Shown: positions 3,826 through 42,834 of the stretch, piece by piece
Layout: the number at the start of each line of letters is the position of its first letter
Position numbering within the stretch: position 1 is the first letter of the stretch
Source: a virus
Lineage: Duplodnaviria; Heunggongvirae; Uroviricota; Caudoviricetes
DNA: 43,157 nt
Direction: 5' to 3' (one strand)
Virus record (IMG/VR): IMGVR_UViG_3300043399_000676
Made by a program: the position numbers and the translations under genes
Notes under the pieces: generated by a model
Told to the model about the DNA's origin: nothing
The model's input: only the letters and a program-made list of their open reading frames with translations
Databases searched by the model: none

Positions 3826-6800
3826 GTGTCTAATAAAAAGTTTAATGCAGTAGATGGAGTATCGGTTGGTCATGATCCAGTAATCGGTGTAATAGATAGC
3901 AACGGTAATTGGACAGGTAACGTAATCCCTGTAACTAAGGGGGGCACTGGTACTTCATCACTTCCGGCAAATGCAGTAATATTAGGAAATAATACCTCTT
4001 CGGTAGGATCTGTTTTGCCTGGTAACTCAGGCAATCTCTTGGTTTCCGATGGATCTACGTGGGTGAGTCAAAACGTAGGTAATCTTTCGGGGTTTAGTGG
4101 TGTATCTGGTCGAAGTGGATATTCTGGTATTAGCGGCTTTAGTGGAGCATCTGGTCGAAGTGGATATTCTGGTATTAGCGGCTTTAGTGGAGCATCTGGA
4201 TATTCCGGTGTCAGTGGATATTCCGGTGTCAGTGGATATTCCGGTGTCAGTGGATATTCCGGTGTCAGTGGATTTTCTGGTTACTCAGGTGCATCTGGTA
4301 CATCAGGTATAAGTGGTTATTCAGGCATCAATGGTGCATCAGGTGTAAGCGGATTCTCTGGCTATTCAGGCATCAGTGGTGCTAATGGTACATCAGGCGT
4401 AAGTGGTTACTCAGGTGCAAGTGGTACATCCGGTACATCAGGATGGAGTGGTTATTCAGGCGCAAGTGGTACATCAGGCGTAAGTGGTTATTCTGGTGCG
4501 AGTGGTTCCTCAGGAAGAAGTGGTTACTCTGGTGCGAGTGGTGTGTCAGGTTATTCTGGCGCATCTGGTACATCAGGTATTAGTGGTTACTCAGGTGTAA
4601 GTGGTTACAGTGGTTACTCAGGTAGATCAGGATATAGTGGTGTTAGCGGGTATTCAGGTGTAAGTGGATGGAGCGGGTATAGTGGTGTGATGTACACTAT
4701 TGTTCCTAGTGATACTGCACCTCTTAATCCTGTTGATGGTCAAATATGGTTTGATTCTACTACAGGCAAGTCTTACTTTTATTTCAATGATGGATCTAGC
4801 AGTCAATGGGTTTTGTTTGCAGATCCTACTGTTACTGATGGTCAAGATGGAGAAAGTGGATACAGCGGTATCTCAGGTGTTAGTGGATTAAGTGGGATTT
4901 CTGGTTACTCAGGGACAAGTGGTCGTTCTGGGTATTCTGGTGAAGTAGGACTATCTGGTACTAGTGGATATAGTGGTTCATCAGGAAGAAGTGGATATAG
5001 TGGTGTATCAGGATATAGTGGCACAATTGGTATCAGTGGATTCAGTGGTTATTCTGGTGCGAGCGGTGCCTCAGGTAGAAGTGGATATAGTGGTGTATCA
5101 GGTTACTCAGGTGCATCTGGTACATCAGGCATAAGTGGTTACTCAGGTGCGAGTGGTGTATCAGGTTACTCAGGTGCATCTGGTACATCAGGCATAAGTG
5201 GTTACTCAGGTGCATCAGGCATAAGTGGTTATTCTGGTGCGAGCGGTTCTTCAGGAAGAAGTGGATATAGCGGACAACCAGGAACATCCGGTATTAGCGG
5301 ATATTCCGGTATTTCGGGAGCCAGTGGCACATCAGGTATCAGTGGTTACTCGGGTGTTAGTGGTTTTAGCGGTGCCTCAGGTATAAGTGGTGTGTCAGGT
5401 TATTCTGGTGCATCTGGCACATCGGGCATAAGTGGGTACTCAGGCGTCAGTGGGTACTCAGGAGTAAGTGGCTACTCAGGTGCGTCTGGTACATCAGGTA
5501 TCAGTGGTTACTCGGGTGTTAGTGGTTTCAGTGGCGCATCTGGCACATCGGGCATAAGTGGGTACTCAGGAGTAAGTGGTTACTCGGGTGCGTCTGGTAC
5601 ATCAGGTATCAGTGGTTACTCGGGTGTTAGTGGTTTCAGTGGCGCATCTGGCACATCGGGCATAAGTGGGTACTCAGGAGTAAGTGGCGCATCTGGCACA
5701 TCGGGCATAAGTGGGTACTCAGGCGTCAGCGGCTTTAGCGGTGCCTCAGGTAGAAGTGGGTTCAGCGGTTACTCAGGCGCATCTGGCACATCAGGATGGA
5801 GTGGTTACTCAGGCGTCAGCGGCTTTAGCGGTGCCTCAGGATGGAGCGGATACAGCGGCGTCTCTGGAGAAATAGGGGAATCAGGTATCAGTGGCTACTC
5901 GGGTGTCAGTGGGTACAGTGGCACATCTGGTACATCAGGTGTCAGTGGGTACTCAGGAGTAAGTGGCACATCTGGTACATCAGGTATCAGTGGCTACTCG
6001 GGAGAAAGCGGTCAAAGTGGTTCATCCGGTTACTCAGGTAAGTCAGGATATTCAGGCATAAGTGGGTACAGTGGGTATAGTGGTAGATCAGGATATTCAG
6101 GCGTTAGTGGTGCAACTGGTACATCAGGGTGGAGTGGTTACTCAGGATGGAGTGGGTACAGTGGTGCATCTGGAGTATCCGGTTGGAGTGGAATCGACGG
6201 CGAATCAGGTATAAGTGGATACAGTGGTATATCCGGTTGGAGTGGATACAGTGGCGAATCTGGTACATCAGGCATCAGTGGGTATTCTGGCATCAGTGGA
6301 TATTCTGGATCAGTTGGACCTTCAGGATGGAGTGGTTACTCGGGTGTCAGTGGGGTATCAGGATTTAGTGGTGCTAGAGGCGCGATATCAATAACTACCT
6401 CAACAAGTCCCCCTCTTAATCCCATTGAAGGCGATATTTGGATTGATGAAGATACTGGTATTCAATACTTCTATTTCCAAGACGGTGACAGTTCTCAGTG
6501 GGTAGAGCTTGCGAACGCAGGTATATCTGGTTTTTCTGGATTGAGTGGTATAGGCGACAACTATGCCACCTCAAGTTCTACATCTCTTACTATAGGTACA
6601 GGAACAAAAACACTTACGGTAGAGACTGGATTAGCGTATACCCCTGGTCAGGCAGTAATCATTGCATTTGATGGTTCTAACTACATGTCAGGTACAGTTA
6701 GTACCTATAATGTTTCTACTGGGCAATTAGTTGCTAATATTACTGATACATTAGGTTTAGGTACGTATTCTACTTGGTCAGTTAATCTAACAGGAACTCC

Positions 6801-8922
6801 AGGACCAGATGGAGTAAGTGGTTATTCAGGGGTATCTGGATTTAGTGGTTTAAGTGGGAGATCAGGTTATTCTGGTATCTCAGGATACAGTGGTATCTCA
6901 GGGTCGGGTACTTCGGGATATAGCGGTGTATCTGGGTTTAGTGGAAGATCAGGATACAGTGGCGTCCAAGGGGCGAGTGGATATTCAGGTGTGTCAGGAC
7001 AAAACGGGACATCTGGGTTTAGTGGAAGATCAGGTTATAGTGGTGTATCCGGGTCACAAGGTATTTCAGGAAACAGCGGTTATTCAGGGGTAAGTGGAAT
7101 AAGCGGGTATTCAGGTGAACCTGGACAAATTGGTGAAAGTGGAATAAGCGGGTATTCAGGTGAACCGGGGGCGACTGGTGAATCGGGATTTAGTGGATAC
7201 AGTGGAATAAGCGGTAGGTCAGGTTATTCGGGTATCAGTGGATACAGTGGATTGTCAGGGTCAACCGGATCAAGTGGATTTAGTGGTATCAGTGGATACA
7301 GCGGAGTATCTGGCTATTCTGGAAGATCAGGATACTCAGGCGTTAGCGGTGCAACTGGCTCTTCTGGATTTAGTGGATTGTCAGGATCAATTGGTGTATC
7401 TGGTTACTCAGGCATAAGTGGTGCATCTGGATATTCAGGCATAAGTGGTTATTCAGGCGCATCTGGCACATCAGGATGGAGTGGTTACTCAGGTGCAAGT
7501 GGTGCATTCGGTACATCAGGATGGAGCGGATATTCAGGTATAAGTGGTTTTAGTGGTGCATCCGGCGTATCTGGCTGGAGTGGTTATTCAGGTGTCAGTG
7601 GATACAGTGGCACATCTGGTACATCAGGTATAAGTGGTTACTCAGGTATAAGTGGTTTTAGTGGCACATCTGGTACATCAGGTATAAGTGGTTATTCAGG
7701 TGTCAGTGGTTTTAGTGGTGCATCCGGCGTATCTGGCTGGAGTGGTTATTCAGGTGTCAGTGGTTTTAGTGGTGCATCCGGCGTATCTGGTTGGAGTGGT
7801 TATTCAGGTGTCAGTGGTTTTAGTGGTGCATCCGGCGTATCTGGTTGGAGTGGTTATTCAGGTATAAGTGGTTTTAGTGGTGCATCCGGCACATCAGGAT
7901 CATTAGGTATTAGTGGTTATAGCGGAATAAGCGGAGTTAATGGCGAATCAGGTGCATCAGGGTATAGTGGCGTATCCGGATCACAAGGACTTTCAGGGTT
8001 CAGTGGTTTTAGTGGACAAGGTCTATCTGGGTTCAGCGGATATTCAGGTCAGAGCGGTATAGGAAACAGCGGATATTCAGGTGTTTCAGGAGAAATTGGC
8101 GTTTCCGGCTACAGTGGCGCAAGTGGGTATTCGGGTGTTTCCGGCTACAGTGGCGCAAGTGGGTATTCGGGTGTTTCTGGTTATTCTGGGGCTGGATATA
8201 AAGCAACATCCAACACTTTAATGTCTGCTGGATTGGGAGCCAAGAGCTTTAACGTAAACGTAGTGGGTGCTTATTCGGTAGGAACTAGAGTACGAGTGGC
8301 CTCAGTCGCTCTCCCTGACGCTGAGTTCTTTGAAGGGGTGATTACGGAAATAAGTTCAACTACTATTTTCGTAGATTCGGATTATTTCAAGGGAGGCGCT
8401 ACTGTTTCATCTTGGACTGTTTCGGTAGCAGGTGAAATAGGACAAAGCGGGTATTCAGGTAGGTCAGGGTATAGTGGTATAAGTGGTTACTCAGGATCTA
8501 GTGGGTATAGTGGTTACTCAGGATCTAGTGGGTTTAGCGGGGTTAGTGGTTACTCAGGTACTACTCCTACTACAATGACAGTTGCAGTATCTGATGAGAC
8601 AACTGCGTTGACAACAGGTACAGCGAAAATTACATTCAGAGCACCGTTTGCAATGACTCTAACTCAGATTCCTAGAGCGTCACTATCTACTGCGTCAACA
8701 TCAGGGGCGGTTACAGTTGATATCAATGAAGCAGGAACAAGTATTCTTGGGGCAAATAAGCTATCAATTGATGCTAATGAAAAAACAAGCACTACTGCAA
8801 CTACCCCAACTACCCTTGCTGATACATCAATTGCCGATGACGCAGAAATAACAATCGATATTGATGGTGCAGGCACAGGTGCTGCTGGATTAAAAGTAAC
8901 TATGTACTACTTAAAGACTTGA
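3826..8922 (+). CDS. Giant Gly-X-Ser collagen-like fibre protein (1698 aa)
   Basis: GTG start. Four blocks of GYS/GFS/GIS/GVS/GAS/GTS/GWS/GRS triplets (roughly 400 by hand estimate). Blocks are separated by two SxTxPxNPxxGxIWxDxxTGxxYFYFxDGxSSQWV modules and two paralogous ATSxTxxxxGxGxK beta modules. Globular C-terminal domain (SDETTALTTG...GLKV). Confidence 0.85.
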   Translation: MSNKKFNAVDGVSVGHDPVIGVIDSNGNWTGNVIPVTKGGTGTSSLPANAVILGNNTSSVGSVLPGNSGNLLVSDGSTWVSQNVGNLSGFSGVSGRSGYSGISGFSGASGRSGYSGISGFSGASGYSGVSGYSGVSGYSGVSGYSGVSGFSGYSGASGTSGISGYSGINGASGVSGFSGYSGISGANGTSGVSGYSGASGTSGTSGWSGYSGASGTSGVSGYSGASGSSGRSGYSGASGVSGYSGASGTSGISGYSGVSGYSGYSGRSGYSGVSGYSGVSGWSGYSGVMYTIVPSDTAPLNPVDGQIWFDSTTGKSYFYFNDGSSSQWVLFADPTVTDGQDGESGYSGISGVSGLSGISGYSGTSGRSGYSGEVGLSGTSGYSGSSGRSGYSGVSGYSGTIGISGFSGYSGASGASGRSGYSGVSGYSGASGTSGISGYSGASGVSGYSGASGTSGISGYSGASGISGYSGASGSSGRSGYSGQPGTSGISGYSGISGASGTSGISGYSGVSGFSGASGISGVSGYSGASGTSGISGYSGVSGYSGVSGYSGASGTSGISGYSGVSGFSGASGTSGISGYSGVSGYSGASGTSGISGYSGVSGFSGASGTSGISGYSGVSGASGTSGISGYSGVSGFSGASGRSGFSGYSGASGTSGWSGYSGVSGFSGASGWSGYSGVSGEIGESGISGYSGVSGYSGTSGTSGVSGYSGVSGTSGTSGISGYSGESGQSGSSGYSGKSGYSGISGYSGYSGRSGYSGVSGATGTSGWSGYSGWSGYSGASGVSGWSGIDGESGISGYSGISGWSGYSGESGTSGISGYSGISGYSGSVGPSGWSGYSGVSGVSGFSGARGAISITTSTSPPLNPIEGDIWIDEDTGIQYFYFQDGDSSQWVELANAGISGFSGLSGIGDNYATSSSTSLTIGTGTKTLTVETGLAYTPGQAVIIAFDGSNYMSGTVSTYNVSTGQLVANITDTLGLGTYSTWSVNLTGTPGPDGVSGYSGVSGFSGLSGRSGYSGISGYSGISGSGTSGYSGVSGFSGRSGYSGVQGASGYSGVSGQNGTSGFSGRSGYSGVSGSQGISGNSGYSGVSGISGYSGEPGQIGESGISGYSGEPGATGESGFSGYSGISGRSGYSGISGYSGLSGSTGSSGFSGISGYSGVSGYSGRSGYSGVSGATGSSGFSGLSGSIGVSGYSGISGASGYSGISGYSGASGTSGWSGYSGASGAFGTSGWSGYSGISGFSGASGVSGWSGYSGVSGYSGTSGTSGISGYSGISGFSGTSGTSGISGYSGVSGFSGASGVSGWSGYSGVSGFSGASGVSGWSGYSGVSGFSGASGVSGWSGYSGISGFSGASGTSGSLGISGYSGISGVNGESGASGYSGVSGSQGLSGFSGFSGQGLSGFSGYSGQSGIGNSGYSGVSGEIGVSGYSGASGYSGVSGYSGASGYSGVSGYSGAGYKATSNTLMSAGLGAKSFNVNVVGAYSVGTRVRVASVALPDAEFFEGVITEISSTTIFVDSDYFKGGATVSSWTVSVAGEIGQSGYSGRSGYSGISGYSGSSGYSGYSGSSGFSGVSGYSGTTPTTMTVAVSDETTALTTGTAKITFRAPFAMTLTQIPRASLSTASTSGAVTVDINEAGTSILGANKLSIDANEKTSTTATTPTTLADTSIADDAEITIDIDGAGTGAAGLKVTMYYLKT
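4198..4269 (+). repeat. 18-nt perfect tandem repeat x4 (ggatattccggtgtcagt; GYSGVS)
   Basis: Identical units at 4198, 4216, 4234 and 4252. Confidence 0.9.
7687..7890 (+). repeat. 54-nt near-perfect tandem repeat x3 plus a partial (SGYSGVSGFSGASGVSGW)
   Basis: Units at 7687, 7741 and 7795 (one synonymous change) and a partial unit at 7849. Confidence 0.9.
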
Positions 8923-17263: not shown

Positions 17264-18541
17264 ATGCCGTTAGATTTTCCGTTATCACCATCAGTAGGAC
17301 AAATTTATACCTTTGGGGTTAGAACTTGGAAGTTCAACGGTAAAGGGTGGGAACTATTAGGAGCAAACAGTGGCTTCAGTGGTTATTCGGGAGCATTTGG
17401 AACAAGCGGATTTTCGGGTGTCAGTGGTGCAACTGGTACATCAGGATGGAGTGGTTACTCAGGCGCATCTGGCTTTAGCGGCATAAGCGGATTTTCGGGT
17501 AGATCAGGATATAGCGGCATAAGCGGTTACTCAGGCGCATCTGGTACATCAGGTATAAGTGGTTACTCAGGTATTTCTGGTGTTAATGGTGCATCTGGCT
17601 TCAGTGGCTTCTCTGGATATTCAGGCGTTAGTGGTGCAACAGGTGGCACAGGTGGTACAGGCGCATCTGGCTTTAGCGGTTTCAGTGGCTTCTCTGGATA
17701 TTCAGGCGTTAGTGGTGCAACAGGTGGCACAGGTGGTACAGGCGCATCTGGCTTTAGCGGTTTCAGTGGCTACTCGGGTATCTCTGGTGTTAATGGTGCA
17801 TCTGGCTTTAGTGGCTTCAGCGGTTACTCTGGTGTTAGCGGATACAGTGGTGTTTCAGGTTCAGGTACTTCGGGTTATTCGGGCGTTTCAGGTGCAAGTA
17901 CGTCTGGGTTCTCTGGAATAAGCGGATTTTCTGGGACTTCGGGTTTTTCTGGAATAAGCGGATTTTCTGGGACTTCGGGCTTCAGTGGTGTATCAGGCAT
18001 AGGTACCTCAGGGTATAGTGGAAAATCTGGATATTCTGGGATTAGCGGATATAGCGGAGCTCCTATAACAGTACTGGACGATACCACGACTTCAACTACG
18101 GTATATCCAGTTTGGAACCCCGCAACCAGTGGTTCTTTGACTCCCAAAGTAAGTTCTACTAAACTATCCTTCATTCCATCAACTGGAGTACTAACATTAG
18201 TTGCAGTTGATTATGGTGCTAATGTACAACAAGGATTCGGGACGTTTACGACTGCAAACACAAATCAAATTATTTTGGATGCAATCTCTAGTTCTACCTA
18301 CAGATCAGCAAAATATACTGTTCAGCTTTCAAGTGGAACAGCATACCAAGTGACGGAATTGAGTACTATACATGACGGAGCAAACGCATACATCGTTGAA
18401 TATGGGGAAAATAAAGCAAATACAGCATCTGCATTGGGATCATTTGACGCAAGTGTCAGTTCAGGTAATATGAACTTGTTGTTTACACCGATAAATTCTT
18501 CTACGACTGTTAAGTTTTTTAGAACGGCGATTGACATATAA
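17264..18541 (+). CDS. Gly-X-Ser collagen-like fibre / adaptor protein
   Basis: MPLDFPLSPSVGQIYT..W.FNG.GW anchor. About 78 GXS-type triplets including an 81-nt duplication with GGT triplets. C-terminal YRSAKY domain. Confidence 0.8.
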   Translation: MPLDFPLSPSVGQIYTFGVRTWKFNGKGWELLGANSGFSGYSGAFGTSGFSGVSGATGTSGWSGYSGASGFSGISGFSGRSGYSGISGYSGASGTSGISGYSGISGVNGASGFSGFSGYSGVSGATGGTGGTGASGFSGFSGFSGYSGVSGATGGTGGTGASGFSGFSGYSGISGVNGASGFSGFSGYSGVSGYSGVSGSGTSGYSGVSGASTSGFSGISGFSGTSGFSGISGFSGTSGFSGVSGIGTSGYSGKSGYSGISGYSGAPITVLDDTTTSTTVYPVWNPATSGSLTPKVSSTKLSFIPSTGVLTLVAVDYGANVQQGFGTFTTANTNQIILDAISSSTYRSAKYTVQLSSGTAYQVTELSTIHDGANAYIVEYGENKANTASALGSFDASVSSGNMNLLFTPINSSTTVKFFRTAIDI

Positions 18542-20748: not shown

Positions 20749-20750
20749 GG

Positions 20751-25162: not shown

Positions 25163-25169
25163 GGATACA

Positions 25170-26458: not shown

Positions 26459-26461
26459 TTA

Positions 26462-29514: not shown

Positions 29515-29515
29515 T

Positions 29516-30784
29516 ATGAATCAATACAAATTTAGTATTATCACACCGGAGCATAATCCTAATAACGCTCCTTTTTTGCTAGAGCTATATAAAAGTATAG
29601 CTAATCAAACCTATTCTAACTGGGAGTGGATTTTATATTTAAACAATGGTTGTTCACCCGATGATCTCCCTGAACTCATTCTTATGGATGACCGAGTTAT
29701 GATCTATCATTGCTTGGATGCAGCACATAACATTGGTGCAATAAAAAATGCAGCATTTAATTTAGGAACAGGTGATGTTTTGGTTGAAGCAGATCATGAT
29801 GATATCTTAACTCCTGATTGTTTAGAAGAGTTGAACATTGCGTTCCAAGATCAACAAGTTGGGTTTGTTTTTAGTGACAATGCAGTTCTTCACATGAAGG
29901 ATGAGTTCTCACCATTCTCTTCTACTTATGGATGGACTCATAGGATGTTTGAGTGGCAAGGAAAACAGTTATATGCAATGAATAGCTTTGAACCTTCTAG
30001 TCATTCAGTTGGGTATATTTGGTACGCACCTGATCATGTTAGATCATGGAGAACTTCTATTTACAAAGAGATCGGCGGCCATAACCCTGATCTTTCTGTA
30101 TGCGATGACCATGAATTGATGATTCGTACATATCTTACTACAAACATGAAGAGGATTCCCAAGGTTCTATACATCTACAGAATCACTGGGGATAATACTT
30201 GGTTAGCTAGAAATCAAGAGATACAAACCAAAACAGTAGAACTTTTTAATCAATATGCAATGAAGCTAGCTGAACGTGATGCAGAAAAAAGAAATCTTCT
30301 TAAGGTTGATATAGGCGGGGGGATAAACTCACTGCCAGGGTATATTACACTAGATCAGAGAGAAACAGCCCACGTTGTATGTGATTTAAATAACGGTATT
30401 CCTTTGCCCGATAACTCAGTGGGAGTTTTGAACGCAAGTCATATTATTGAACATCTCCGAGATCCTATTAAAACTATGCGTGAGATTCACAGAGTACTTG
30501 CACATGGAGGATGGGCATTTATAGAAGTTCCAAGCACAGACGGGAGAGGAGCGTTTCAAGATCCAACTCATGTTAGTTATTGGAATGAAAATAGCTTCCT
30601 GTATTATACTAACTCGTATTTTGCAAACTTTATTGAGAACAAAGATATTCGATTCCAAGAGTTTAGAAGAGAGACATGGTTTCCTAATGAATTCTTGCGT
30701 AACATGAACGTTTGTGTTACTACTGCTTGGTTGGTTGCCCACAAGCCAAATGGAAATACTTTGCCTCACGGTATGTATATATGA
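29516..30784 (+). CDS. GT2 glycosyltransferase fused to a SAM methyltransferase
   Basis: FSIITPEHN, NQTYSNWEWIL, EADHDD (DxD) and CDDHELMIR; C-terminal KVDIGGG and ASHIIEHL..LAHGGW. Probable start is ATG 29516. Confidence 0.85.
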   Translation: MNQYKFSIITPEHNPNNAPFLLELYKSIANQTYSNWEWILYLNNGCSPDDLPELILMDDRVMIYHCLDAAHNIGAIKNAAFNLGTGDVLVEADHDDILTPDCLEELNIAFQDQQVGFVFSDNAVLHMKDEFSPFSSTYGWTHRMFEWQGKQLYAMNSFEPSSHSVGYIWYAPDHVRSWRTSIYKEIGGHNPDLSVCDDHELMIRTYLTTNMKRIPKVLYIYRITGDNTWLARNQEIQTKTVELFNQYAMKLAERDAEKRNLLKVDIGGGINSLPGYITLDQRETAHVVCDLNNGIPLPDNSVGVLNASHIIEHLRDPIKTMREIHRVLAHGGWAFIEVPSTDGRGAFQDPTHVSYWNENSFLYYTNSYFANFIENKDIRFQEFRRETWFPNEFLRNMNVCVTTAWLVAHKPNGNTLPHGMYI

Positions 30785-30954
30785 CATCTTATATTCATCT
30801 AGTTAAGATCGATGACGTTGAAAAGGAACGTAGGGTAGAAATATGCAATAAGTGTGAGCACTTAAGCAAACTAAAAGTTTGTAAGAAATGTGGTTGCCCA
30901 ATTCAAACTAAAACTTGGTTAAAGAAAGCAAAATGCCCTATCGGTAAGTGGTAG
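30781..30954 (+). CDS. Small Cys-rich protein (DUF6171-like)
   Basis: CxxC-x8-CxxCGC-x6-K-x6-CPIGKW. Start at 30781 gives an ATGA overlap. Confidence 0.7.
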   Translation: MTSYIHLVKIDDVEKERRVEICNKCEHLSKLKVCKKCGCPIQTKTWLKKAKCPIGKW

Positions 30955-31005
30955 AAAAGTTAATCTGTCTAGTTTTGTTGATACATACAAATCAAAAGAT
31001 TAGAT

Positions 31006-34000
31006 ATGATTACAGGCCCAGTAAAATTTGATTTCATGGCAGGTGGAGTAAAACGCACTTCTATGGCGTTTTGGTGTGTCATGATGAAGCGAGAGTTGTT
31101 TGACGAGATTGGACTTTTAGATGAAATCTTTTCTCCTGGTATGGGAGAAGATGGTGATTTCTCTATACGAGCCGAAATGGCAGGTCATTCTTTAGTTCAA
31201 GTTCCTAATAATTTTAGTCATATGTTCGGGGAAGGCAAGTTAGACAACGAGGTCTATGCTTTCCCTATTTACCATAAAGGTTCGGGAACATTTGGATGGG
31301 GTGACTATGGTGGTATAATTGAACGAAACCAAAAAATTCTAGACGAGAGGTATGGGTTGAATCAAAAAACTTACGAAATAGATTCCAGGTATCAAACCAA
31401 TAAAGAAATTAGATACTTTGATGATTTGCAGAATGCTGACGAGTTTCAGAATGAAGTGTATGAATATGCAAGATTTCTTGCAGAACAGAACTCCTACAAA
31501 ACAGTATTAGATATAGGTTGTGGCTCTGGATTCAAATTGAGAAAATACTTCGACGCTTCGAAGTACGATTGTTATGGGCTAGATTTAGACAAAACTTGTT
31601 CGGTTTTGCGAGAGAAGTATAAAGATGTAAACTGGATATCATATGATATCGATAATGAAACTGGAGCCCCGAGTGAACTTCCACCGCAGGTTGATCTTGT
31701 GATATGTTCAGATGTAATAGAACACCTGCGAGATCCTGATAGGTTGATGTCTTTCTTAAAAGGGATTGATTATAAAATCTTATTGCTATCAACACCGGAC
31801 AGGGATATTATTTCATCTAGGAATGGTAAGTTGTTTGGACCACCGGATAACGCTCATCATATTCGTGAATGGAATAAAGATGAACTTAATAGATATCTAA
31901 GTAAGCATGTAAAGGTAACTGGGCAAGCAGTTATAAATGAAGCACAAGCAACTCAAATGGCGGTTTGTATTCCAGCAAAAACTCAAGTTTCCATAGTAAT
32001 TCCAACATACAATCATTGCGATGATCTACTGAAACCTTGCATTGAAAGTATCCAACAATACACAGACATGGTAAATGTTGAGTTAGTAATAGTTGCGAAT
32101 GGATGTTCTGATAATACACGAGAATATGTCCAAACTCTAGAAGGTAACGTGAAGTTAATATGGGTAGATGAAGCCATTGGCTACACAAAGGCGACTAACT
32201 TAGGAATTAAAGCAGCAACAGGGGAAACAATTGTTCTGATGAACAACGATGTTTTGCTGTTGTCACAATATAAGAATTTTTGGTTAGACGTATTGATGAA
32301 CGCACTTGTTCCTACTAATGTAGGGATTGTTGGTGTTTTGGAAAACTATGATATGTACGCCGACGCCAAATTTCCTATATTTTTCTGCGTTGCTATCAAG
32401 AGAGAAGTGTTTGATAAAATTGGATTACTAGATGAAGCATATTCTCCTGGATATGGAGAAGATATTGACTTTACTCTTAGAGCCAAGCAAGCAGGATTTG
32501 ATTACATTATCCCCGTCGCAACTAGATTCGTCGATGGACAGAATGTAACTGAATACCCTATTTGGCACAAGAACAATCAAACGTTCAAAGATGTTCCAGA
32601 ATATTTGAGTATCATCCAAAGGAACAATCGGTTGTTATATGAGAAATACAATCCCAGATTCAAGTCGGCTGATTTCAGTATTGTCATTCCTACTTATAAT
32701 CATTTGTATGACGCATTGAAACCATGCATTGAATCATTGTTTAACTACACTGATCTTTCAAATAAAGAAGTAATTGTAGTTGCAAATGGTTGCACTGACG
32801 ATACAAAGCCGTTTTTAGACTCGATATCTGATAAGGTTCGTGTAATTTGGTTTGATGACCCGATTGGGTACATCAATGCGGTAAACGCCGGTATTGCCGT
32901 TAGTGTTGGTAAACACATCATTTTGTTAGATAATGACTGTGTGCTTTTACCTCAATCAGTTGATGATTGGGTGAATATTCTTCATGCACCATTTGTAAAT
33001 AGTGACAAGGTCGCTGCATCAAGTCCATTTGCTCATGAATATGAAGACATGGGGTTTGTTTTGCATTCAGGATGCACAATGTATAGGGCGGATGTACTGC
33101 GTCAAATTGGTATGTTTGATACTACATATCATCCTGGATACTTTAGTGACTCAGATGTTGCAATGAAAATATGGAAAGCAGGATATGAATGTGTAGAAGT
33201 ACCAAAACGTAACGATGATAAGCCCTACAATAACAATCTATTCTTAATCAATTTTCCAGTGATGCATTTGGGAAATGTTCAGACAATGGATAAAGTTAAG
33301 GACAATGAAATCGTCAAAAAGAACAGAGAGATTTTATATTCAAGATATGGAAAGAAAAAACAAATGAAAAAATATAGCATAGTAATCCCTACTTATAATC
33401 ATTGCGATGACCTACTAAGACCTTGCCTTGAGAGTATTGAACGTTACTCAGATATGAGTCAGGTTGAGGTTATTGTAGTTGCAAATGGTTGTGTGGATAA
33501 TACTAAGGAGTATGTAGAGAGTTTAAACCCTGAAAACTTTAAGTTAATCTGGGTAGATGAAGCTATTGGCTATACAAAGGCAACTAACTTAGGCATTAAA
33601 GCAGCAACAGGTGAATATGTTGTGCTTTTGAACAATGATACTGAAATTCTACCTTCAGAAAAAAACGCATGGCTAAACATCTTGGAGGAACCCTTTAACA
33701 CAAAAAAGAAGGTAGGACTGACGGGCCCCTTGCAACTTTTTGATGATTATGCAGGTTCGCCAGTCCTTATCTTTTTCTGTGTAATGATTAAACGTACCCT
33801 ATTTGAAGAAATTGGGTATTTGGATGAAATCTTTACACCAGGTGGCGGTGAAGACATTGATTTTACTGTTCGCGCAAACCTTGCAGGATATGAAGCGATT
33901 CAGGTTACTCAGACCACTTATAACGGTGTAACTAATGTAGGTAACTTTCCGATTTGGCACAAAGACAATAAGACGTTCGGCGAAATCCCTGAATACACGA

Positions 34001-35223
34001 ACCATATCGTAAAGCGTAATGGTCATATTAATGCTAAACGATACAATAAGAATCTAAAATTGAACTTGGGTTCAGGTGGTGTACCCTATCCAGGATATTT
34101 GTCAGTTGATCTTTATGATAAACGAGCACATGTCCATATGGACATTACTAAGCTAGATTTTCATGATAACACCGCAGTTGAAATTCTTGCTTCGCATGTG
34201 TTCGAACATCTTAATCCTTATCATGCATTGGACATTCTTAAAGATTGGAACAGAGTTCTTAAGCCAGGTGGAAAGCTTATTATGGAGATGCCAGACATCG
34301 AAGCCTTGTGCGCTAGGTTCGCTGATGCAAACACAGGAGAACGATACGGCATTCTAAATGCAGTATATGGTAGCGTTAACACTACGGGTGAAGGTGGACC
34401 AGACAATATTACAGCACCGCATCTATTTGGTTGGTGGAGACAATCTCTGTTAGATCATTTACTTAATGCAGGATACGTCGATATCGAGTTCATGGAAGAG
34501 CAAATCCCTCACCCTGAAAGCAACTTGCGGGTCGAAGCAGTAAAGCCTATCCCTAACAGGAGTGAATTGTATGCACAAGACCCTCTTACTTACGATGAAA
34601 TCTTTGGTATCGACGGGTACAAGATTGCAAAGAGAGGACCACTATCACCTAGAGGAAAAACAGTAGTAGACATTGGTGCGAATATTGGATTGTTCGCTCT
34701 TAGATGTGTAGAATTAGGTGCAGCTAGAGTGATTTCTGTTGAACCTCAACCTGCTGTCTATCATCAAGGACTTCTACGTTACATAAAAGATTTTCCACAG
34801 GTCATTCCAATCAATCGAGCTTGTTTAGATGTTGATGGTAAACAAGTTTTGATTTCTGATCAAAATGTTGCATCTAGGATTGGATACGAGGGAGATCCGG
34901 TGGAAAGTATTTCTCTAAGAACTATCGTAACTCAATATAATGTTGAAAAGGATTCGCTTCTTAAAATTGATTGCGAAGGATCTGAGTATGATATTCTTTT
35001 GAATACTGATATTGATACTCTTAGGTTGTTCAAGGTAATTGATATGGAATTACATATGATCAACAACGTTAATCCTTTGTACAAAGGATTTGAAATTATC
35101 ATGAATCGAATGAATGAAGTTGGCTTTAAGATGGAAGAATTCACACAGCATTACTGGAACTTTACAGATGGCCGAGTCCATCCGATTGATGTTTGTGTCT
35201 TGAAATGGGTTAGAATGGATTAA
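31006..35223 (+). CDS. Multidomain glycosyltransferase/methyltransferase polyprotein (half GT2 - MTase - GT2 - GT2 - GT2 - MTase - FkbM-type MTase)
   Basis: SIVIPTYNH three times (about 31981, 32671, 33364), each with NND/DND and EDIDF/SDSDV motifs. SAM motifs VLDIGCGSG, LNLGSGG and VVDIGANIG...LLKIDCEGSE. Confidence 0.9.
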   Translation: MITGPVKFDFMAGGVKRTSMAFWCVMMKRELFDEIGLLDEIFSPGMGEDGDFSIRAEMAGHSLVQVPNNFSHMFGEGKLDNEVYAFPIYHKGSGTFGWGDYGGIIERNQKILDERYGLNQKTYEIDSRYQTNKEIRYFDDLQNADEFQNEVYEYARFLAEQNSYKTVLDIGCGSGFKLRKYFDASKYDCYGLDLDKTCSVLREKYKDVNWISYDIDNETGAPSELPPQVDLVICSDVIEHLRDPDRLMSFLKGIDYKILLLSTPDRDIISSRNGKLFGPPDNAHHIREWNKDELNRYLSKHVKVTGQAVINEAQATQMAVCIPAKTQVSIVIPTYNHCDDLLKPCIESIQQYTDMVNVELVIVANGCSDNTREYVQTLEGNVKLIWVDEAIGYTKATNLGIKAATGETIVLMNNDVLLLSQYKNFWLDVLMNALVPTNVGIVGVLENYDMYADAKFPIFFCVAIKREVFDKIGLLDEAYSPGYGEDIDFTLRAKQAGFDYIIPVATRFVDGQNVTEYPIWHKNNQTFKDVPEYLSIIQRNNRLLYEKYNPRFKSADFSIVIPTYNHLYDALKPCIESLFNYTDLSNKEVIVVANGCTDDTKPFLDSISDKVRVIWFDDPIGYINAVNAGIAVSVGKHIILLDNDCVLLPQSVDDWVNILHAPFVNSDKVAASSPFAHEYEDMGFVLHSGCTMYRADVLRQIGMFDTTYHPGYFSDSDVAMKIWKAGYECVEVPKRNDDKPYNNNLFLINFPVMHLGNVQTMDKVKDNEIVKKNREILYSRYGKKKQMKKYSIVIPTYNHCDDLLRPCLESIERYSDMSQVEVIVVANGCVDNTKEYVESLNPENFKLIWVDEAIGYTKATNLGIKAATGEYVVLLNNDTEILPSEKNAWLNILEEPFNTKKKVGLTGPLQLFDDYAGSPVLIFFCVMIKRTLFEEIGYLDEIFTPGGGEDIDFTVRANLAGYEAIQVTQTTYNGVTNVGNFPIWHKDNKTFGEIPEYTNHIVKRNGHINAKRYNKNLKLNLGSGGVPYPGYLSVDLYDKRAHVHMDITKLDFHDNTAVEILASHVFEHLNPYHALDILKDWNRVLKPGGKLIMEMPDIEALCARFADANTGERYGILNAVYGSVNTTGEGGPDNITAPHLFGWWRQSLLDHLLNAGYVDIEFMEEQIPHPESNLRVEAVKPIPNRSELYAQDPLTYDEIFGIDGYKIAKRGPLSPRGKTVVDIGANIGLFALRCVELGAARVISVEPQPAVYHQGLLRYIKDFPQVIPINRACLDVDGKQVLISDQNVASRIGYEGDPVESISLRTIVTQYNVEKDSLLKIDCEGSEYDILLNTDIDTLRLFKVIDMELHMINNVNPLYKGFEIIMNRMNEVGFKMEEFTQHYWNFTDGRVHPIDVCVLKWVRMD

Positions 35224-35224
35224 T

Positions 35225-36205
35225 ATGGGAAAGCAAATTCTTTGTTCTATTTCAACTAGAAATCGTTATGACACAACATTGCCTATGGCAATTGAGTCAG
35301 TCATAATGCAGACTAAGCGACCTGATAAGCTGGTTATTTTTGATGACAATGATAATCCTAAAGATATGCGAGAAGTGCAGCATTATAGGTATTTGTTTGA
35401 AATGATGCAACTTAAAGGGATGGATTGGGAATGGGTATATGCCTTGAAGAAAGGGCAACATCATAACCATCAAATGGCTAATAGAATGGGTTACGAATGG
35501 GTATGGAGACTTGATGATGATACGGTGGCAGAGCCTAACGTACTTGAGACTTTGTTTTCCTACACTGACCCTACGATCGGAGCGGTAGGAGGGGCAGTAC
35601 TTACTCCTCCTTTCGGTCCATTGGGTAAGGTTACAAGTAAGATAGAAGATATCTACTCTGAACCTAATATACAGTGGTATTATATTGACCAAGTCAAAGA
35701 AGTTGATCATTTACATTGTTCCTTTCTATACCGAGCAGGAGTGTATGATTATGATCTCAGTTTGTCTAGAGTAGCGCATCGAGAAGAGACACTATTTTCG
35801 TATGGGCTTGTGCAAAAGGGGTATAGAAATTTAGTCGTTCCTAATGCTGTAACATGGCACTTAAAAAATGCGACTGGCGGAATTAGAGACTCCAATGTTC
35901 GTGAATGGTTTGAACATGATGAAAACATTTTCAGGAATAAGATACTCTTAAGGGACAACACGATTGTTGTATTAGATTGCGGAATGGGAGATCATATCGT
36001 GTTTAAGCATGTGCTTCCTGATGTTAAAAACCCTATTGTTTTCAGTTGCTACCCTAATATTGTTCCTGGTAAGAGTATTGCGGAAGCGTATCAAATGTTT
36101 GGTGATTTGAGTCAGTTTAGTATCTACAGAAAAATGGATGAATGGAATTGGAAAGGCTCCCTTGAAGACGCCTTTAGAAAACTTTATGTGAGTGATAAAA
36201 AATGA
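35225..36205 (+). CDS. GT2 glycosyltransferase with a C-terminal GT9-like N-lobe fragment
   Basis: CSISTRNRY..LPMAIESVIMQT, IFDDN, WRLDDD and HREET; C-terminal IVVLDCGMGDHIVF resembles the GxGD start of GT9. Confidence 0.75.
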   Translation: MGKQILCSISTRNRYDTTLPMAIESVIMQTKRPDKLVIFDDNDNPKDMREVQHYRYLFEMMQLKGMDWEWVYALKKGQHHNHQMANRMGYEWVWRLDDDTVAEPNVLETLFSYTDPTIGAVGGAVLTPPFGPLGKVTSKIEDIYSEPNIQWYYIDQVKEVDHLHCSFLYRAGVYDYDLSLSRVAHREETLFSYGLVQKGYRNLVVPNAVTWHLKNATGGIRDSNVREWFEHDENIFRNKILLRDNTIVVLDCGMGDHIVFKHVLPDVKNPIVFSCYPNIVPGKSIAEAYQMFGDLSQFSIYRKMDEWNWKGSLEDAFRKLYVSDKK

Positions 36206-36651
36206 TATTGATTTCCCCTTATGCAAAACAAATGCGAAATGGAGAAAAACATCCAAAGAACTATCCGTACTGGGATAAGCTCATCCCTATGATAAAAGAG
36301 CCGATCATTCAGGTTGGCATCGAGGGAGAGTCTCCGATGGTAGAGGACTTTCGCCAAAACTTGTCATTGATTGAATTAGAAAATCTTGTCAATGAATGCA
36401 AGACTTGGATATCAGTTGATTCATTCTTTCAGCATTTTTGTTGGGATTTAGGTAAACCTGGCATTGTACTATTTGGACAATCTGATCCAAATATATTCGG
36501 TCATCCAGAAAATATTAACCTACTAAAAGATAGAAAGTTCTTGAGAAAAAACCAGTTTTGGCTTTGGGAACAGTGTGAAGCCAATGACGAGGCGTTTGTA
36601 GAACCTGAAGAAGTTTTAAGGACACTAAATGAACATTTTTCAGTCAACTGA
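36202..36651 (+). CDS. GT9-like (heptosyltransferase family) C-terminal lobe
   Basis: ISPYA....KNYPYW, IQVG..GE, LSL.EL..L, ISVDSFFQH and GKPGIVLFGQSDP..FG match the GT9 C-lobe pattern. Confidence 0.7.
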   Translation: MILISPYAKQMRNGEKHPKNYPYWDKLIPMIKEPIIQVGIEGESPMVEDFRQNLSLIELENLVNECKTWISVDSFFQHFCWDLGKPGIVLFGQSDPNIFGHPENINLLKDRKFLRKNQFWLWEQCEANDEAFVEPEEVLRTLNEHFSVN

Positions 36652-37072
36652 CGGTGATACTAGGTTAAAACTTTGGTTTGATTTTAGAGAGGAGATCAAA
36701 GGTTTAAATACGAGAGATAAATGCATTGCAGTTGATAACTGGTGGCAAGCTGCTCCGTTGATCAATCATCATTTACATCCAGCTGACATCGAGAATTGGC
36801 CTAATCCATGGGAACTGTTGACAGAAAACAGCTACTGCACGATTGCAAGAGGATTAGGGATGTGCTATACTTTAGCCTTTTCAGGTGTAAAAAATGTTAA
36901 TATGGTAGAGGCTAAGAACAGAGTTGGTGAAGAAGTGGTATTAGTTTTAGTGGACAACTCAAAGTATATACTTAACTATTGGCCTAACACAGTAATAAGT
37001 AATACACTCGATGAATTTGAAGTCACAAAAAAGATAAAGATTGAGAATATCTTAACCAAATATAATAACTAA
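36629..37072 (+). CDS. Hypothetical protein (possible degenerate transglutaminase-like fold)
   Basis: 147-aa ORF with normal composition. WPNPWELL....YC..A.....YTL loosely resembles the LapG/BTLCP signature. Confidence 0.55.
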   Translation: MNIFQSTDGDTRLKLWFDFREEIKGLNTRDKCIAVDNWWQAAPLINHHLHPADIENWPNPWELLTENSYCTIARGLGMCYTLAFSGVKNVNMVEAKNRVGEEVVLVLVDNSKYILNYWPNTVISNTLDEFEVTKKIKIENILTKYNN

Positions 37073-39718: not shown

Positions 39719-40252
39719 ATGGTGAATGTTAAATCATTCAAGCTATACCTTTTTCCTGTTTTGTTTGTGTTAGGAATGACTTTTACACATGACAATTCAG
39801 GGGTACGAGCAAATACCCGCTCATTGGATACCTACCTTGTAGTAGGTAAACCAGTAAACAAAAAAGAACTAGATTGCCTTGCAAAGAATATTTTCTTTGA
39901 AGCCAGAGGAGAAGTATACTCAGGTCAAGTAGCAGTAGCTAGAGTTGTAATGAATAGAATCCATCATGGGTTCGGCGATAATACCTGTCAAGTCGTATAT
40001 CAGACTGACAGAAAGGGAAACGGTACACTATGCCAGTTTAGTTGGGTTTGTGAAAAACCCAAACGGCTAGATAAAAACGATCCCGCCTACATCCGAGCAC
40101 AGGATATTGCTTATCGAGTATTAGCATTCAATGCTTATTCAGACAGGGTTGATAAAAATGTTCTATTTTTTCATAGCAAACATGTAAATCCTAGATGGAG
40201 GTACAAACGCTTCAAGCAAATAGGAAATCACATTTTCTATGCTAAGATTTAA
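39719..40252 (+). CDS. Cell wall hydrolase, SleB / Hydrolase_2 family
   Basis: CLAKNIFFEARGE..GQVAVARVVMNR, C.VVYQ, CQFSW and IGNHIFY; hydrophobic N-terminus; taggag SD. Confidence 0.92.
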   Translation: MVNVKSFKLYLFPVLFVLGMTFTHDNSGVRANTRSLDTYLVVGKPVNKKELDCLAKNIFFEARGEVYSGQVAVARVVMNRIHHGFGDNTCQVVYQTDRKGNGTLCQFSWVCEKPKRLDKNDPAYIRAQDIAYRVLAFNAYSDRVDKNVLFFHSKHVNPRWRYKRFKQIGNHIFYAKI

Positions 40253-42834
40253 GCAGTAATCAAAACTCTTTCCATTTTTATCGTAGCCGAGGTTGATGCA
40301 GTCATTACGACGATCAACCTCGCGCTACCTGAATTTACATCACCATCAAACGATGCAAGGGTAGATGTTGACGTTAGGATTGCAAATTCAGAGACTTTTG
40401 AAGTCGTTCCATCGTACAACATAATCACTTCCGATACTTGACTGTCAGAACCTTGTACTACCTGAATTAGATATTTTGCCGATCTGTAAGCAGTTGTGCT
40501 CCATGAGTCAAGTACAGAAGGGTTTACTGTGCTGATAGTAGCAGTTATTGCATTTTGTTCAGAAACTGCCGTTGTTGAAAATGCTAAGTTTAATGACGCG
40601 CCATTGTTAAGCTGAATGTCATTTGTAGAAGTATTTCCTACATTAGTGACTGATTGTAGTGAGGGAGTAGGAGGAGTTATTCCACTGAACCCACTATTTC
40701 CAGAATATCCGCTAACACCAGAATACCCACTAAAACCTGATACTCCGCTTGCACCGGAGTACCCGCTTTGACCGGTGAACATGGCACCCTGGAACTTAGT
40801 TACCCAATCACCTGCTTGAAGAGCCACGGTGCCTACACCGATTGTCCACATTTCAACGTAATCAGTTGAACCATTTAGATATACTAATGCGCTATGACTA
40901 GTGACCTGAGTAGATACGTTTGTGCCCGGTCCACTTGCTGAAAATACCGTTCCGTTTTTCTTAAAGAGAACTTGGGCATAAGTCACGGCTTGAGTAAAGT
41001 ATGATGTGCCCGTTACAAAATAATATCCTGCAATCAATGGCTGAAATCGACTGTTCGCAGTGCTAAACGCTGAGCTAGTGTCGTATTCAACTACGTCAAA
41101 TGTAATTTTTTCTTCTTGGGCTGACGTTAAATTTTGCTGTGTAGACTTATACACGCTGAAGCTAGGTCCAGCAACTGCAGGAACTGATACTCCACTGAAA
41201 CCTGAGAATCCACTGACACCAGATATTCCACTAAATCCAGAAGTTCCTTGTGGACCTTGAACTCCAGAGTATCCACTCGTTCCAGAGTATCCACTTGTTC
41301 CAGAAGACCCGCTTATTCCGCTATATCCTGATCTGCCGCTAAATCCACTTGTAGATGAATATCCACTGAATCCGCTAATACCTGAATATCCGCTCGTACC
41401 AAGTACACCTGAATATCCGCTCGTACCTGAGTAGCCAGATAGTCCTAACCCAGAATATCCACTGATTCCACTATAACCACTGATACCTGAGTATCCACTC
41501 CTACCGGAGAATCCACTGATACCTGAACCAGAAAATCCAGATGTTCCACTAGCACCCACTTCACCTGAGTACCCGGATGGTCCTTGTAACGATCCAATGT
41601 TAATCCAACTTGAACCATCCCATACCCATCCATCACCGGTATCTAATGTTATGTATAAATCACCGGCGTTGCCTACATAAGAAGTTGGATAACCTGGTAA
41701 ATTTGTGAATGTACTTACTGTACCTTTGATAGTGATCGAAGTACCATCTTTCCCGCTGATGCCCGAATATCCAGAGAATCCACTGAAGCCAGACGCACCA
41801 GACGCACCACTTGCACCTGAGTATCCACTGAATCCAGAATAGCCACTGAATCCAGAATAGCCACTGAATCCAGAGTAACCTGATCTTCCACTGTATCCGC
41901 TATATCCACTAAAGCCAGAGAACCCGCTAAACCCGCTGATGCCTGAGTATCCACTAAACCCACTAAACCCACTAAACCCACTGAAGCCAGAGAACCCGCT
42001 CTGTCCAGACGCACCACTAATACCCGAGTATCCACTAAACCCGCTGAAGCCACTAAAGCCGCTAATTCCTGAGTATCCACTTACACCTGAGTACCCGCTG
42101 AAGCCACTAATTCCTGAGTATCCACTGAATCCAGATGTGCTGTCTCCGGACATCCCACTATATCCAGATGTGCTTTGTCCTGATATACCACTATACCCTG
42201 ATGTGCTTTGTCCACTGATACCAGAAAATCCACTGATACCTCTAATTCCAGAATAACCAGAAGAACCACTTTGACCGCTGAACCCTGATGATCCGCTTGA
42301 TCCACTCGTACCAGAATATCCTGATCTTCCAGAAGCCCCTGAATACCCGCTGAACCCAGACCAACCGGACGTACTCTGACCTGATATGCCACTAAACCCT
42401 GAACCACCACTAAACCCAGACCAACCACTGAACCCCGATGAACCTGATATGCCAGATGTCCCGGAGAACCCGGAATCACCTGAAAATCCACTCAGTCCCC
42501 GATCGCCTGAAACCCCTGAATACCCGCTTTCTCCTGCAGTTCCTGACCATCCAGGTAACCCACTGAACCCTGAGATACCAGATGCCCCACTGAACCCTGA
42601 GATTCCCGAAAACTCGACGCTTCCGGGTATACCTTGTGCACCTGAGTAACCACTGAACCCTGAGTAACCGCGAAGTCCGCCGTACGCAAGTGAATTCCAA
42701 GCAGTAACACCGTCCCCTATTTTAAACATCCCGGTGTCTATCTCGACACCTATCTCTGCTAATGCAAGAGTGGGATTAGCTGAGGTCCATTCGCTTGCTG
42801 TACCTCTTCTTAATTGAAACTGAATATACGCCAC
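40249..42834 (-). CDS. Fibre protein: Mtd_N domain + Gly-X-Ser repeats + internal C1q-like domain + YRSAKY C-terminal domain
   Basis: GTG start. IQFQLRRGTASEWTSANPTLALAEIGVEIDTGMFKIGDGVTAWNSLAY matches Mtd_N. PSFSVYKS...ITFDVVEYDT..F...RFQP..AGYY...LNGSTDYVE matches C1q (about 40776-41170). Confidence 0.85.
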   Translation of the reverse strand: MAYIQFQLRRGTASEWTSANPTLALAEIGVEIDTGMFKIGDGVTAWNSLAYGGLRGYSGFSGYSGAQGIPGSVEFSGISGFSGASGISGFSGLPGWSGTAGESGYSGVSGDRGLSGFSGDSGFSGTSGISGSSGFSGWSGFSGGSGFSGISGQSTSGWSGFSGYSGASGRSGYSGTSGSSGSSGFSGQSGSSGYSGIRGISGFSGISGQSTSGYSGISGQSTSGYSGMSGDSTSGFSGYSGISGFSGYSGVSGYSGISGFSGFSGFSGYSGISGASGQSGFSGFSGFSGFSGFSGYSGISGFSGFSGFSGYSGYSGRSGYSGFSGYSGFSGYSGFSGYSGASGASGASGFSGFSGYSGISGKDGTSITIKGTVSTFTNLPGYPTSYVGNAGDLYITLDTGDGWVWDGSSWINIGSLQGPSGYSGEVGASGTSGFSGSGISGFSGRSGYSGISGYSGISGYSGLGLSGYSGTSGYSGVLGTSGYSGISGFSGYSSTSGFSGRSGYSGISGSSGTSGYSGTSGYSGVQGPQGTSGFSGISGVSGFSGFSGVSVPAVAGPSFSVYKSTQQNLTSAQEEKITFDVVEYDTSSAFSTANSRFQPLIAGYYFVTGTSYFTQAVTYAQVLFKKNGTVFSASGPGTNVSTQVTSHSALVYLNGSTDYVEMWTIGVGTVALQAGDWVTKFQGAMFTGQSGYSGASGVSGFSGYSGVSGYSGNSGFSGITPPTPSLQSVTNVGNTSTNDIQLNNGASLNLAFSTTAVSEQNAITATISTVNPSVLDSWSTTAYRSAKYLIQVVQGSDSQVSEVIMLYDGTTSKVSEFAILTSTSTLASFDGDVNSGSARLIVVMTASTSATIKMERVLITA

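Follow-up and report, generated by a model that had tools for sequence, protein, structure and literature searches.

What does a tailed phage make with a single gene that encodes three and a half glycosyltransferase (GT) domains and three methyltransferase (MTase) domains, and on which molecule is the product placed? The question is raised by a 43,157-nt stretch of DNA from an uncultured freshwater phage (IMG/VR record IMGVR_UViG_3300043399_000676, Caudoviricetes), which was analyzed over its whole length and is called the window here. A single uninterrupted open reading frame (ORF) at 31006-35223 on the plus strand encodes a protein of 1405 aa, read in the original prediction as a glycan-building polyprotein with 3.5 domains of GT family 2 (GT2) and three MTase domains. 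ORF, Pfam and profile analyses confirmed this domain content, and the predicted order and boundaries agreed with ours within a few codons. The best explanation of the results is that the 1405-aa protein is a soluble, cytoplasmic member of a phage-only family of modular enzymes. On balance, we favor the reading that it elongates and O-methylates an O-linked glycan on the phage's own Gly-X-Ser collagen-like fibers; such fibers, rather than the capsid, are the likely acceptor. Domain anatomy, intact motifs, purifying selection, module grammar and neighborhood association were observed, and from them we infer the acceptor, how the labor is divided, the donor sugar and what the half-domain does.

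Module boundaries were set by Pfam, self-comparison and family profiles. The resulting layout was half-I, MTase 1, III, II, III, MTase 2, FkbM (Table 1), where the Roman numerals stand for GT types that recur throughout the family. Pfam detected three Glycos_transf_2 stretches, Methyltransf_23/11 twice and one FkbM domain. PF00535 (GT2/GT-A) reached 190 bits over three stretches against a gathering cut-off of 23.3. The class I S-adenosylmethionine (SAM) methyltransferase models gave 74.6 bits (PF13489) and 66.5 bits (PF08241, two stretches), and the FkbM domain was recognized by both TIGR01444 (74.4 bits, cut-off 37.7) and PF05050 (41.6 bits, cut-off 22.7). In the self-comparison GT2-a and GT2-c were 56% identical (E 9e-92) and contained the shared peptides quoted for them earlier, showing that they are indeed close paralogues. 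Identity was 34% between GT2-a and GT2-b and 39% between GT2-b and GT2-c, and the half-GT2 was 45% identical to the corresponding parts of GT2-a and GT2-c. The start of GT2-c at an internal Met was also borne out (Met787, nt 33364); this domain is the first unit of a conserved GT-III/MTase 2/FkbM tail. A longer N-terminus of the 1405-aa protein was excluded by an in-frame TGA at 30979 and by a separate 57-aa gene 5' of the ORF. Because there was no sign of cleavage, the protein is a multidomain fusion and not a polyprotein.

The catalytic machinery appeared to be intact. A protein search recovered 356 metagenomic relatives of 850-2300 aa, and 406 GT domains from the 120 best of them were aligned, 398 of which were full-length. 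The last Asp of the DXD-type motif (D90) was kept in 398 of the 398 full domains, the two Asp of a later acidic motif (D161 and D163) in 397 and 393, a His (H196) in 393 and an Asn (N215) in 396. GT2-a, GT2-b and GT2-c each carry the equivalents of all five residues, and the three full GT2 domains are predicted to be competent. SAM motifs were present in all three MTase domains. The retention of catalytic and cofactor motifs in three GT2 and three MTase domains agrees with the earlier suggestion of a multi-transferase, glycan-building enzyme. GT2-b had been described as diverged at its catalytic motif. The difference (SDSDV versus EDIDF) is real, but the motif is not degenerate: FSD[SP]DV marks a conserved subtype, found in approximately 99 of the 406 GT domains, and its two invariant Asp are intact. 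The view of GT2-b as a degenerate or dead copy was rejected, since the subtype retains all family-invariant residues.

Structure prediction agreed with the profile assignments. The AlphaFold2 (AF2) model of aa 788-1405 had a mean predicted local distance difference test (pLDDT) score of 88 and comprised one GT-A domain and two Rossmann methyltransferase folds; GT2-c was modeled as a GT-A fold with pLDDT >90. MTase 1 was modeled with pLDDT >85, its closest folds being Hen1 2'-O-methyltransferase domains, and the FkbM module matched FkbM and the Haloferax sugar methyltransferase AglP. The nearest named fold analogues of the protein were RfbC of Myxococcus, y4gI, AglI/AglE/AglP and PgaC. The GT domains matched mannosyl-, fucosyl-, rhamnosyl- and N-acetylgalactosaminyltransferases and bifunctional polymerases alike, and with matches spread over so many kinds of transferase no donor sugar can be named. 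The GT2 domains had been likened to WbbL-like rhamnosyltransferases. This assignment was not supported: TIGR01556 gave 27-31 bits per GT2 domain against a cut-off of 200.55, below several unrelated GT2 models.

The relatives share a strict module grammar. Type I GTs carry the motif GEDGDF and are usually the first domain; type II GTs carry FSD[SP]DV and were always followed by another GT in the homologues; type III GTs carry GEDIDF and are usually the last GT, followed by MTase 2. MTase 2 came after a type III GT in 118 of the homologue domains examined. When domain number and order were compared across the 120 best homologues, 39 architectures were found, almost all of which follow one order (optional elements in parentheses): I, (MTase 1 or an insert of ~180 aa), II, (insert), III, sometimes doubled, MTase 2, (FkbM). 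The ~180-aa insert had weak Methyltransf_24/CmcI-like matches. The commonest architecture was I-II-III-MTase 2-FkbM, of ~1090 aa, and the arrangement of the window protein was found otherwise only in one relative of 76% identity. Types I and III were 58% identical in their donor-side N-halves, which equals the within-type level, and 39% identical in their acceptor-side C-halves. This pattern suggests that they probably use the same nucleoside diphosphate (NDP)-sugar with different acceptors or linkages. The strict module order is compatible with, and no proof of, processivity and action in N-to-C order.

The family appears to be restricted to phages. No close relative was found in 50,697 deposited phage genomes, where there were only weak protein matches to single domains, and window positions 29000-37000 had no DNA match among the deposited phage genomes. 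One genome from each of 185,579 prokaryote species also contained no close relative; single domains alone were matched, at ≤37% identity. The contigs that carry homologues are large, up to 211 kb, and contain T4-type genes.

The gene neighborhood pointed to a possible acceptor. Across 27 IMG/VR loci of the family, the only constant neighbors were the genes for a 326-aa GT and a GT9-like protein, located directly downstream in 25 of them. The same pair was found in a cultured freshwater siphophage, Methylophilaceae phage P19250A (KX815270.1), with 67% DNA and 63% protein identity. In P19250A the pair is preceded by genes for a 1201-aa Gly-X-Ser collagen protein and a 209-aa MTase. The 1201-aa protein (4664-8269) consists of Gly-X-Ser repeats by its Pfam Collagen match (5.6e-124), and its annotation as a "tail length tape-measure protein" is probably wrong. 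A "PE family protein" encoded before the collagen gene had a weak, sub-threshold match to Gly_rich_2 (E 0.005).

A scan with the 326-aa GT retrieved 81 loci, which formed 28 clusters at 90% identity, and the GT9-like gene came next after it in 73 of the 81. In 15 of the 28 clusters a Gly-X-Ser collagen gene with the same orientation lay directly upstream, in many cases at a distance of 16 nt; a gene was counted as directly upstream when it abutted the 326-aa GT gene or was parted from it only by the gene or genes of an intervening slot. This slot was empty or held a gene for an MTase of ~217 aa, a GT-MTase of ~430 aa or a GT-FkbM protein of ~475 aa; elsewhere it held a GT plus a GT-MTase-FkbM protein, or a giant of the 1405-aa protein's family. 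All collagen ORFs found near the cassette had Ser at the Y position in 56-99% of triplets at the 326-aa GT loci and in 58-99% at the family loci, with Thr in one case. All four searchable records with a family gene encoded such collagens, one of them with Gly-Pro-Thr instead. A variable slot behind fiber genes indicates that the 1405-aa enzyme is the most elaborate occupant of a decoration slot, and the gene context points to the virion-associated glycan of the original prediction.

According to the model that we propose, the 1405-aa gene would fill the variable decoration slot of a fiber-linked glycosylation cassette. The core of the 326-aa GT2 and the 149-aa GT9-like protein would probably start an O-linked glycan on the Y-position Ser of Gly-X-Ser fibers, and the 1405-aa protein would extend it by three GT2 transfers in the order type III, type II, type III. 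The three MTase domains would then O-methylate the sugars, and the half-GT2 would be kept as a non-catalytic module for acceptor docking or structure. The outcome would be a phage-specific, methyl-capped sugar coat on the fibers. A broader version of the model treats the family as a natural combinatorial code for glycans. The succession of GT types I, II and III from the N- to the C-terminus, with a cognate methyltransferase after each, would spell the sequence and methylation of the O-glycan on Gly-X-Ser collagen fibers; gain, loss and duplication of modules would diversify the code for host range or anti-recognition, and the truncated type I domain would be a pseudo-enzyme turned lectin-like, acceptor-docking domain. 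We put this version forward tentatively and regard it as fairly unlikely.

Several observations weigh against decoration of Gly-X-Ser fibers. Large T4-like contigs usually have no collagen gene directly beside the giant gene, and a collagen ORF was present within 10 kb in only 6 of 28 giant-gene loci, many loci being truncated. Because the giant is rarely beside a collagen gene, the smaller versions of the cassette supply a large part of the evidence for adjacency, and collagen adjacency could merely reflect a shared placement in a late or tail-fiber module. The genes immediately 5' in the window encode Gly-X-Gln collagens and two 2-oxoglutarate (2OG)-Fe(II) oxygenases, and these collagens could be the true or additional acceptors. 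The half-GT2 had no confident predicted fold, so its docking role is conjecture. Finally, soluble GT2 enzymes can also use lipid-linked host intermediates.

The last point leads to remodeling of the host surface, in which the enzyme, during infection, would extend and methyl-cap a lipid-linked host glycan (O-antigen, capsule or surface (S)-layer) with the help of carrier lipid and exporters supplied by the host. The altered cell surface could, for instance, keep out superinfecting phages or prevent progeny from adsorbing to lysed cells. WbdA/WbdD-type enzymes would be precedents, being soluble or peripheral and capping chains by methylation. The same is true of WsaE-type enzymes (PMC2943079), the nearest named fold analogues of the 1405-aa protein are enzymes of O-antigen, exopolysaccharide and S-layer glycans, and phage GT clusters have been interpreted as surface remodelers in cyanophage work (PMC12801897). 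However, no initiating transferase of the phosphoglycosyltransferase kind, flippase, polymerase, ABC or other transporter, or transmembrane segment was detected in the proteins of the glycan island, and no close relative was found among the 185,579 cellular species genomes. Host remodeling also leaves unexplained why the cassette lies tightly and type-specifically beside Gly-X-Ser collagen genes in unrelated phages. We therefore consider it unlikely.

Alternatively, as happens in mycobacteriophages and chloroviruses, the sugars could be placed on phage proteins of another kind, such as the capsid, the tail or Gly-X-Gln collagens that the 2OG oxygenases have hydroxylated; the link to Gly-X-Ser collagens would then be merely positional. 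This reading, too, appeared unlikely. In the window, the 1405-aa gene shares one co-directional block with genes for three Gly-X-Gln collagens, two 2OG-Fe(II) oxygenases and a DUF6445 protein, and a precedent for such a pathway is Mimivirus L230, which hydroxylates and glucosylates collagen lysines (PMC9614988). Many family loci, moreover, have genes for large unannotated, structural-looking proteins upstream, and not for collagens. By contrast, neither the oxygenases nor the Gly-X-Gln collagens were found in the flanks of the other 27 family loci, indicating that this part of the block looks like a separate, lineage-specific add-on. The constant partners are the 326-aa GT and the GT9-like protein, whose genes come after Gly-X-Ser collagen genes elsewhere.

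That the fusion and its duplications are an assembly error or a partly dead relic is essentially excluded: the first module is truncated and lacks a confident fold on its own, and GT2-b deviates at the ED-x-D motif, but the architecture is common to independent contigs and to relatives from other samples, purifying selection acts on every domain, GT2-b falls within a conserved subtype with all invariant residues present, and the half module belongs to an old clade reused across several architectures. An identical 1405-aa protein was encoded on a second contig of 14.6 kb with the same neighboring genes. Logan contigs from two runs spanned 29000-36500 in one piece with zero differences and a word depth of ~30x; their support is weak, since both runs came from one freshwater metagenome sample, possibly the window's own source. 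Stronger support was provided by contigs from two other samples, which encoded a protein of 76% identity whose seven modules are the same and stand in the same order.

Comparison with this 76% relative showed that every module, including the half-GT2, is under purifying selection. Synonymous sites were saturated (pS, the proportion of synonymous differences, 0.69-0.84), and non-synonymous divergence (pN) was 0.09-0.23 across all modules; the values for the half-GT2 were pN 0.12 and pS 0.76. GT2-a diverged faster than its paralogue GT2-c (67% versus 88% identity to the relative), and the two domains were 85% identical in DNA over 105 nt (32146-32250 versus 33535-33639). This pattern of GT2-a could be due to selection that was relaxed or diversifying once the domain had been duplicated, perhaps together with gene conversion on a local scale.

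The start of the half-GT2 coincides with the G-I-T-G-P of full type I domains, except that Met replaces Gly. The half-GT2 has no nucleotide-binding half and no DXD motif, and it keeps E48, D49, D51 and H90. Every invariant residue of the C-half is retained. With the whole nucleotide-binding half missing, the module is not a transferase by itself. When the whole window was searched in any frame with a family hidden Markov model and tblastn for a complementary type I N-half, only the N-halves of GT2-a, GT2-b and GT2-c were recovered. A split gene, with the N-half in the upstream gene, the DUF6171 minigene or another frame, was ruled out; the upstream gene encodes a didomain protein of 425 aa in which a divergent GT, complete in itself, is joined to an MTase. 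Seven half modules with the start MITGPV(K/R)F formed one clade (support 99/96). In this clade the module heads at least five different architectures; it also makes up a protein of 134 aa and, joined to a different MTase-like tail, one of 296 aa. In the AF2 model of aa 1-330 the half-GT2 had a pLDDT of 30-50. A metagenomic homologue of 861 aa (P0107) starts with two tandem half-GT modules followed by a full GT, suggesting that the half domain is an evolutionary unit of its own. We conjecture that it is a retained non-catalytic module with an acceptor-docking or structural role.

The block around the 1405-aa gene is co-directional and tightly packed (Table 1). Its 5' part encodes, in order, three Gly-X-Gln collagen chains, two 2OG-Fe(II) oxygenases, an MTase and an 804-aa GT2/DUF6445 protein. 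These are followed by the 425-aa GT and MTase protein, the DUF6171 minigene, the 1405-aa gene, the 326-aa GT2 and the 149-aa GT9-like protein. The 3' end consists, in order, of a 147-aa unannotated ORF, a glutaredoxin, a 102-aa unannotated ORF, a 684-aa unknown protein, which had no match among cultured phages, and a cell-wall hydrolase. The three Gly-X-Gln collagen chains are of equal length and bear S74 chaperone domains; together with the two oxygenases and the MTase that follow them, they occupy 18541-27103. The window's three Gly-X-Ser collagen genes are not directly adjacent to the glycan cassette.

The ATG of the DUF6171 minigene overlaps the stop codon of the upstream gene, and the minigene sits between two GT/MTase genes. 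It was kept at the same spot in the 76% relative (L001, L002), though uncalled as a gene there. The 326-aa GT fell in Atlas clusters that were 100% viral. The 149-aa protein matched only positions 172-218 of the 247-position GT9 profile, and its length falls well below that of a complete GT-B enzyme. A split GT9 enzyme, with the C-terminal ~90 aa of the 326-aa GT as the N-domain and the 149-aa protein as the remainder, was rejected because it had no Pfam support. Among the relatives, L001 (1-5700) had genes for a sulfotransferase, a DegT-type aminotransferase and an NDP-sugar epimerase/dehydratase beside the cassette, and L130 (4606-7846) had genes for a sulfotransferase and an APS kinase. These sugar-chemistry genes hint at amino-, deoxy- or sulfated sugars.

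Table 1. Modules of the 1405-aa protein, its neighbors and the candidate acceptors, in window coordinates.
Feature	Residues (aa)	Position (nt)	Strand	Remarks
Half-GT2, type I, C-terminal acceptor-side half	1-123	31006..31374	+	GT profile positions 116-228 only
MTase 1, class I SAM methyltransferase	126-325	31381..31980	+	Methyltransf_23 1e-20, Methyltransf_11; motif I at aa 168-175
GT2-a, type III	326-555	31981..32670	+	D415, D486, D488, H521
GT2-b, type II, FSDSDV subtype	556-786	32671..33363	+	D644, D715, D717, H754
GT2-c, type III	787-1015	33364..34050	+	D878, D950, D952, H985
MTase 2, Methyltransf_11 type	1016-1185	34051..34560	+	Motifs at 1020-1025 and 1062-1069
FkbM-family methyltransferase and stop codon	1186-1405	34561..35223	+	PF05050 1.8e-10; motif 1222-1228
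Complete, divergent GT2 + Methyltransf_11 didomain, 425 aa		29507..30784	+	Upstream neighbor
Cys-rich DUF6171 minigene, 57 aa		30781..30954	+	Two CxxC pairs; PF19668 5e-9
Partner 1, GT2-like glycosyltransferase, 326 aa, candidate initiating transferase		35225..36205	+	63% identical to P19250A_0025
Partner 2, GT9-like segment, 149 aa		36202..36651	+	PF01075 26.2 bits (cut-off 22); 4-nt overlap with partner 1
Gly-X-Ser collagen-like fiber protein, candidate acceptor		3826..8922	+	405 triplets, Ser at Y 91%
Gly-X-Ser collagen-like fiber protein, candidate acceptor		17264..18541	+	72 triplets, Ser at Y 82%
Gly-X-Ser collagen-like fiber protein, candidate acceptor		40249..42834	-	148 triplets, Ser at Y 89%

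Chloroviruses, mimiviruses and some mycobacteriophages are known to glycosylate their virions with enzymes of their own, and to our knowledge many GT clusters of aquatic phages have no assigned target. Multi-transferase enzymes for virion or surface glycans and phage virion glycosylation as such were already known. What is new is a phage-only family with up to seven or more modules that obey a strict grammar. The truncated yet conserved pseudo-GT is likewise new, as is the family's position within a fiber-linked cassette. The family offers a concrete candidate acceptor, the Ser-rich collagen-like fibers; a graded natural series from the two-gene core to the seven-module giants; and a cultured entry point, phage P19250A with its minimal cassette. 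If the proposed function is correct, it would show how phages equip their receptor-binding fibers with sugar coats that are methylated and variable, and the soluble modular GT2 and MTase domains would form a useful set for glyco-engineering.

Among known systems, the chondroitin polymerase K4CP and the heparosan synthase PmHS2 resemble the 1405-aa protein in their tandem GT-A domains, as fold-level matches of 14-16% identity. Unlike the phage protein, they alternate two donors into a long polymer and carry no methyltransferases. The virion glycosylation cassettes of mycobacteriophages consist of separate small genes and include methyltransferases. According to Freeman et al. in 2023, as cited in PMC12801897, mycobacteriophages reportedly encode GTs that modify capsid and tail-tube subunits. 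They share with the window the combination of phage GTs and MTases, with phage structural proteins as targets (here candidate targets). However, the mycobacteriophage enzymes are separate and act on capsid and tail tube, whereas the 1405-aa protein is a fusion.

Two PBCV-1 enzymes, A061L and the GT-GT-MTase fusion A064R, work on the chlorovirus capsid glycan. A064R assembles the terminal part of this virion glycan and O-methylates it, and another methyl group comes from a second MTase; the structure of A064R D1 has been solved (PMC9614988). The original prediction had drawn this comparison, and A064R is a fair functional analogue, being likewise a virus-encoded soluble fusion of GT domains and a SAM methyltransferase. 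No sequence relationship was detectable: the A064R chain was not among the PDB sequence matches at E ≤ 0.001, the presence of A064R-D1 in the search library being unconfirmed. A064R has three domains with GTs of different families, whereas the 1405-aa protein has seven modules and all of its GTs are paralogous GT2 domains. The acceptor of A064R is a capsid N-glycan; that of the 1405-aa protein, in a phage of a bacterial host, is likely a collagen-like fiber.

WsaE of the Geobacillus stearothermophilus S-layer glycan joins an O-methyltransferase to two rhamnosyltransferase domains, and its methylation caps the chain (PMC2943079). The likeness is one of architecture, with an MTase and multiple GT domains in one polypeptide, and the GTs of WsaE make different linkages of one sugar. 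WsaE works on a lipid-linked chain exported by an ABC transporter, machinery that the phage island does not contain, and it uses rhamnose, which the TIGR01556 score does not support for the 1405-aa protein.

A parallel to the proposed acceptor is found in bacterial spore filaments. In Clostridioides difficile, sgtA adjoins bclA3, and SgtA puts N-acetylglucosamine on Thr or Ser of collagen triplets (PMC7157674); the collagen repeats of Bacillus anthracis BclA bear a rhamnose oligosaccharide that ends in a methylated sugar (PMC10050317, PMC6222408). The enzymes of these bacterial systems are separate proteins, whereas the 1405-aa protein is a seven-module fusion, and the bacterial filaments are of Gly-Pro-Thr type, whereas the phage fibers are proline-poor Gly-X-Ser. 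Both systems place a GT gene beside the gene for a collagen-like surface filament, and the SgtA-BclA3 and BclA systems carry an O-glycan on the Y-position hydroxy amino acid of Gly-X-Y triplets, as is proposed here for the phage fibers.

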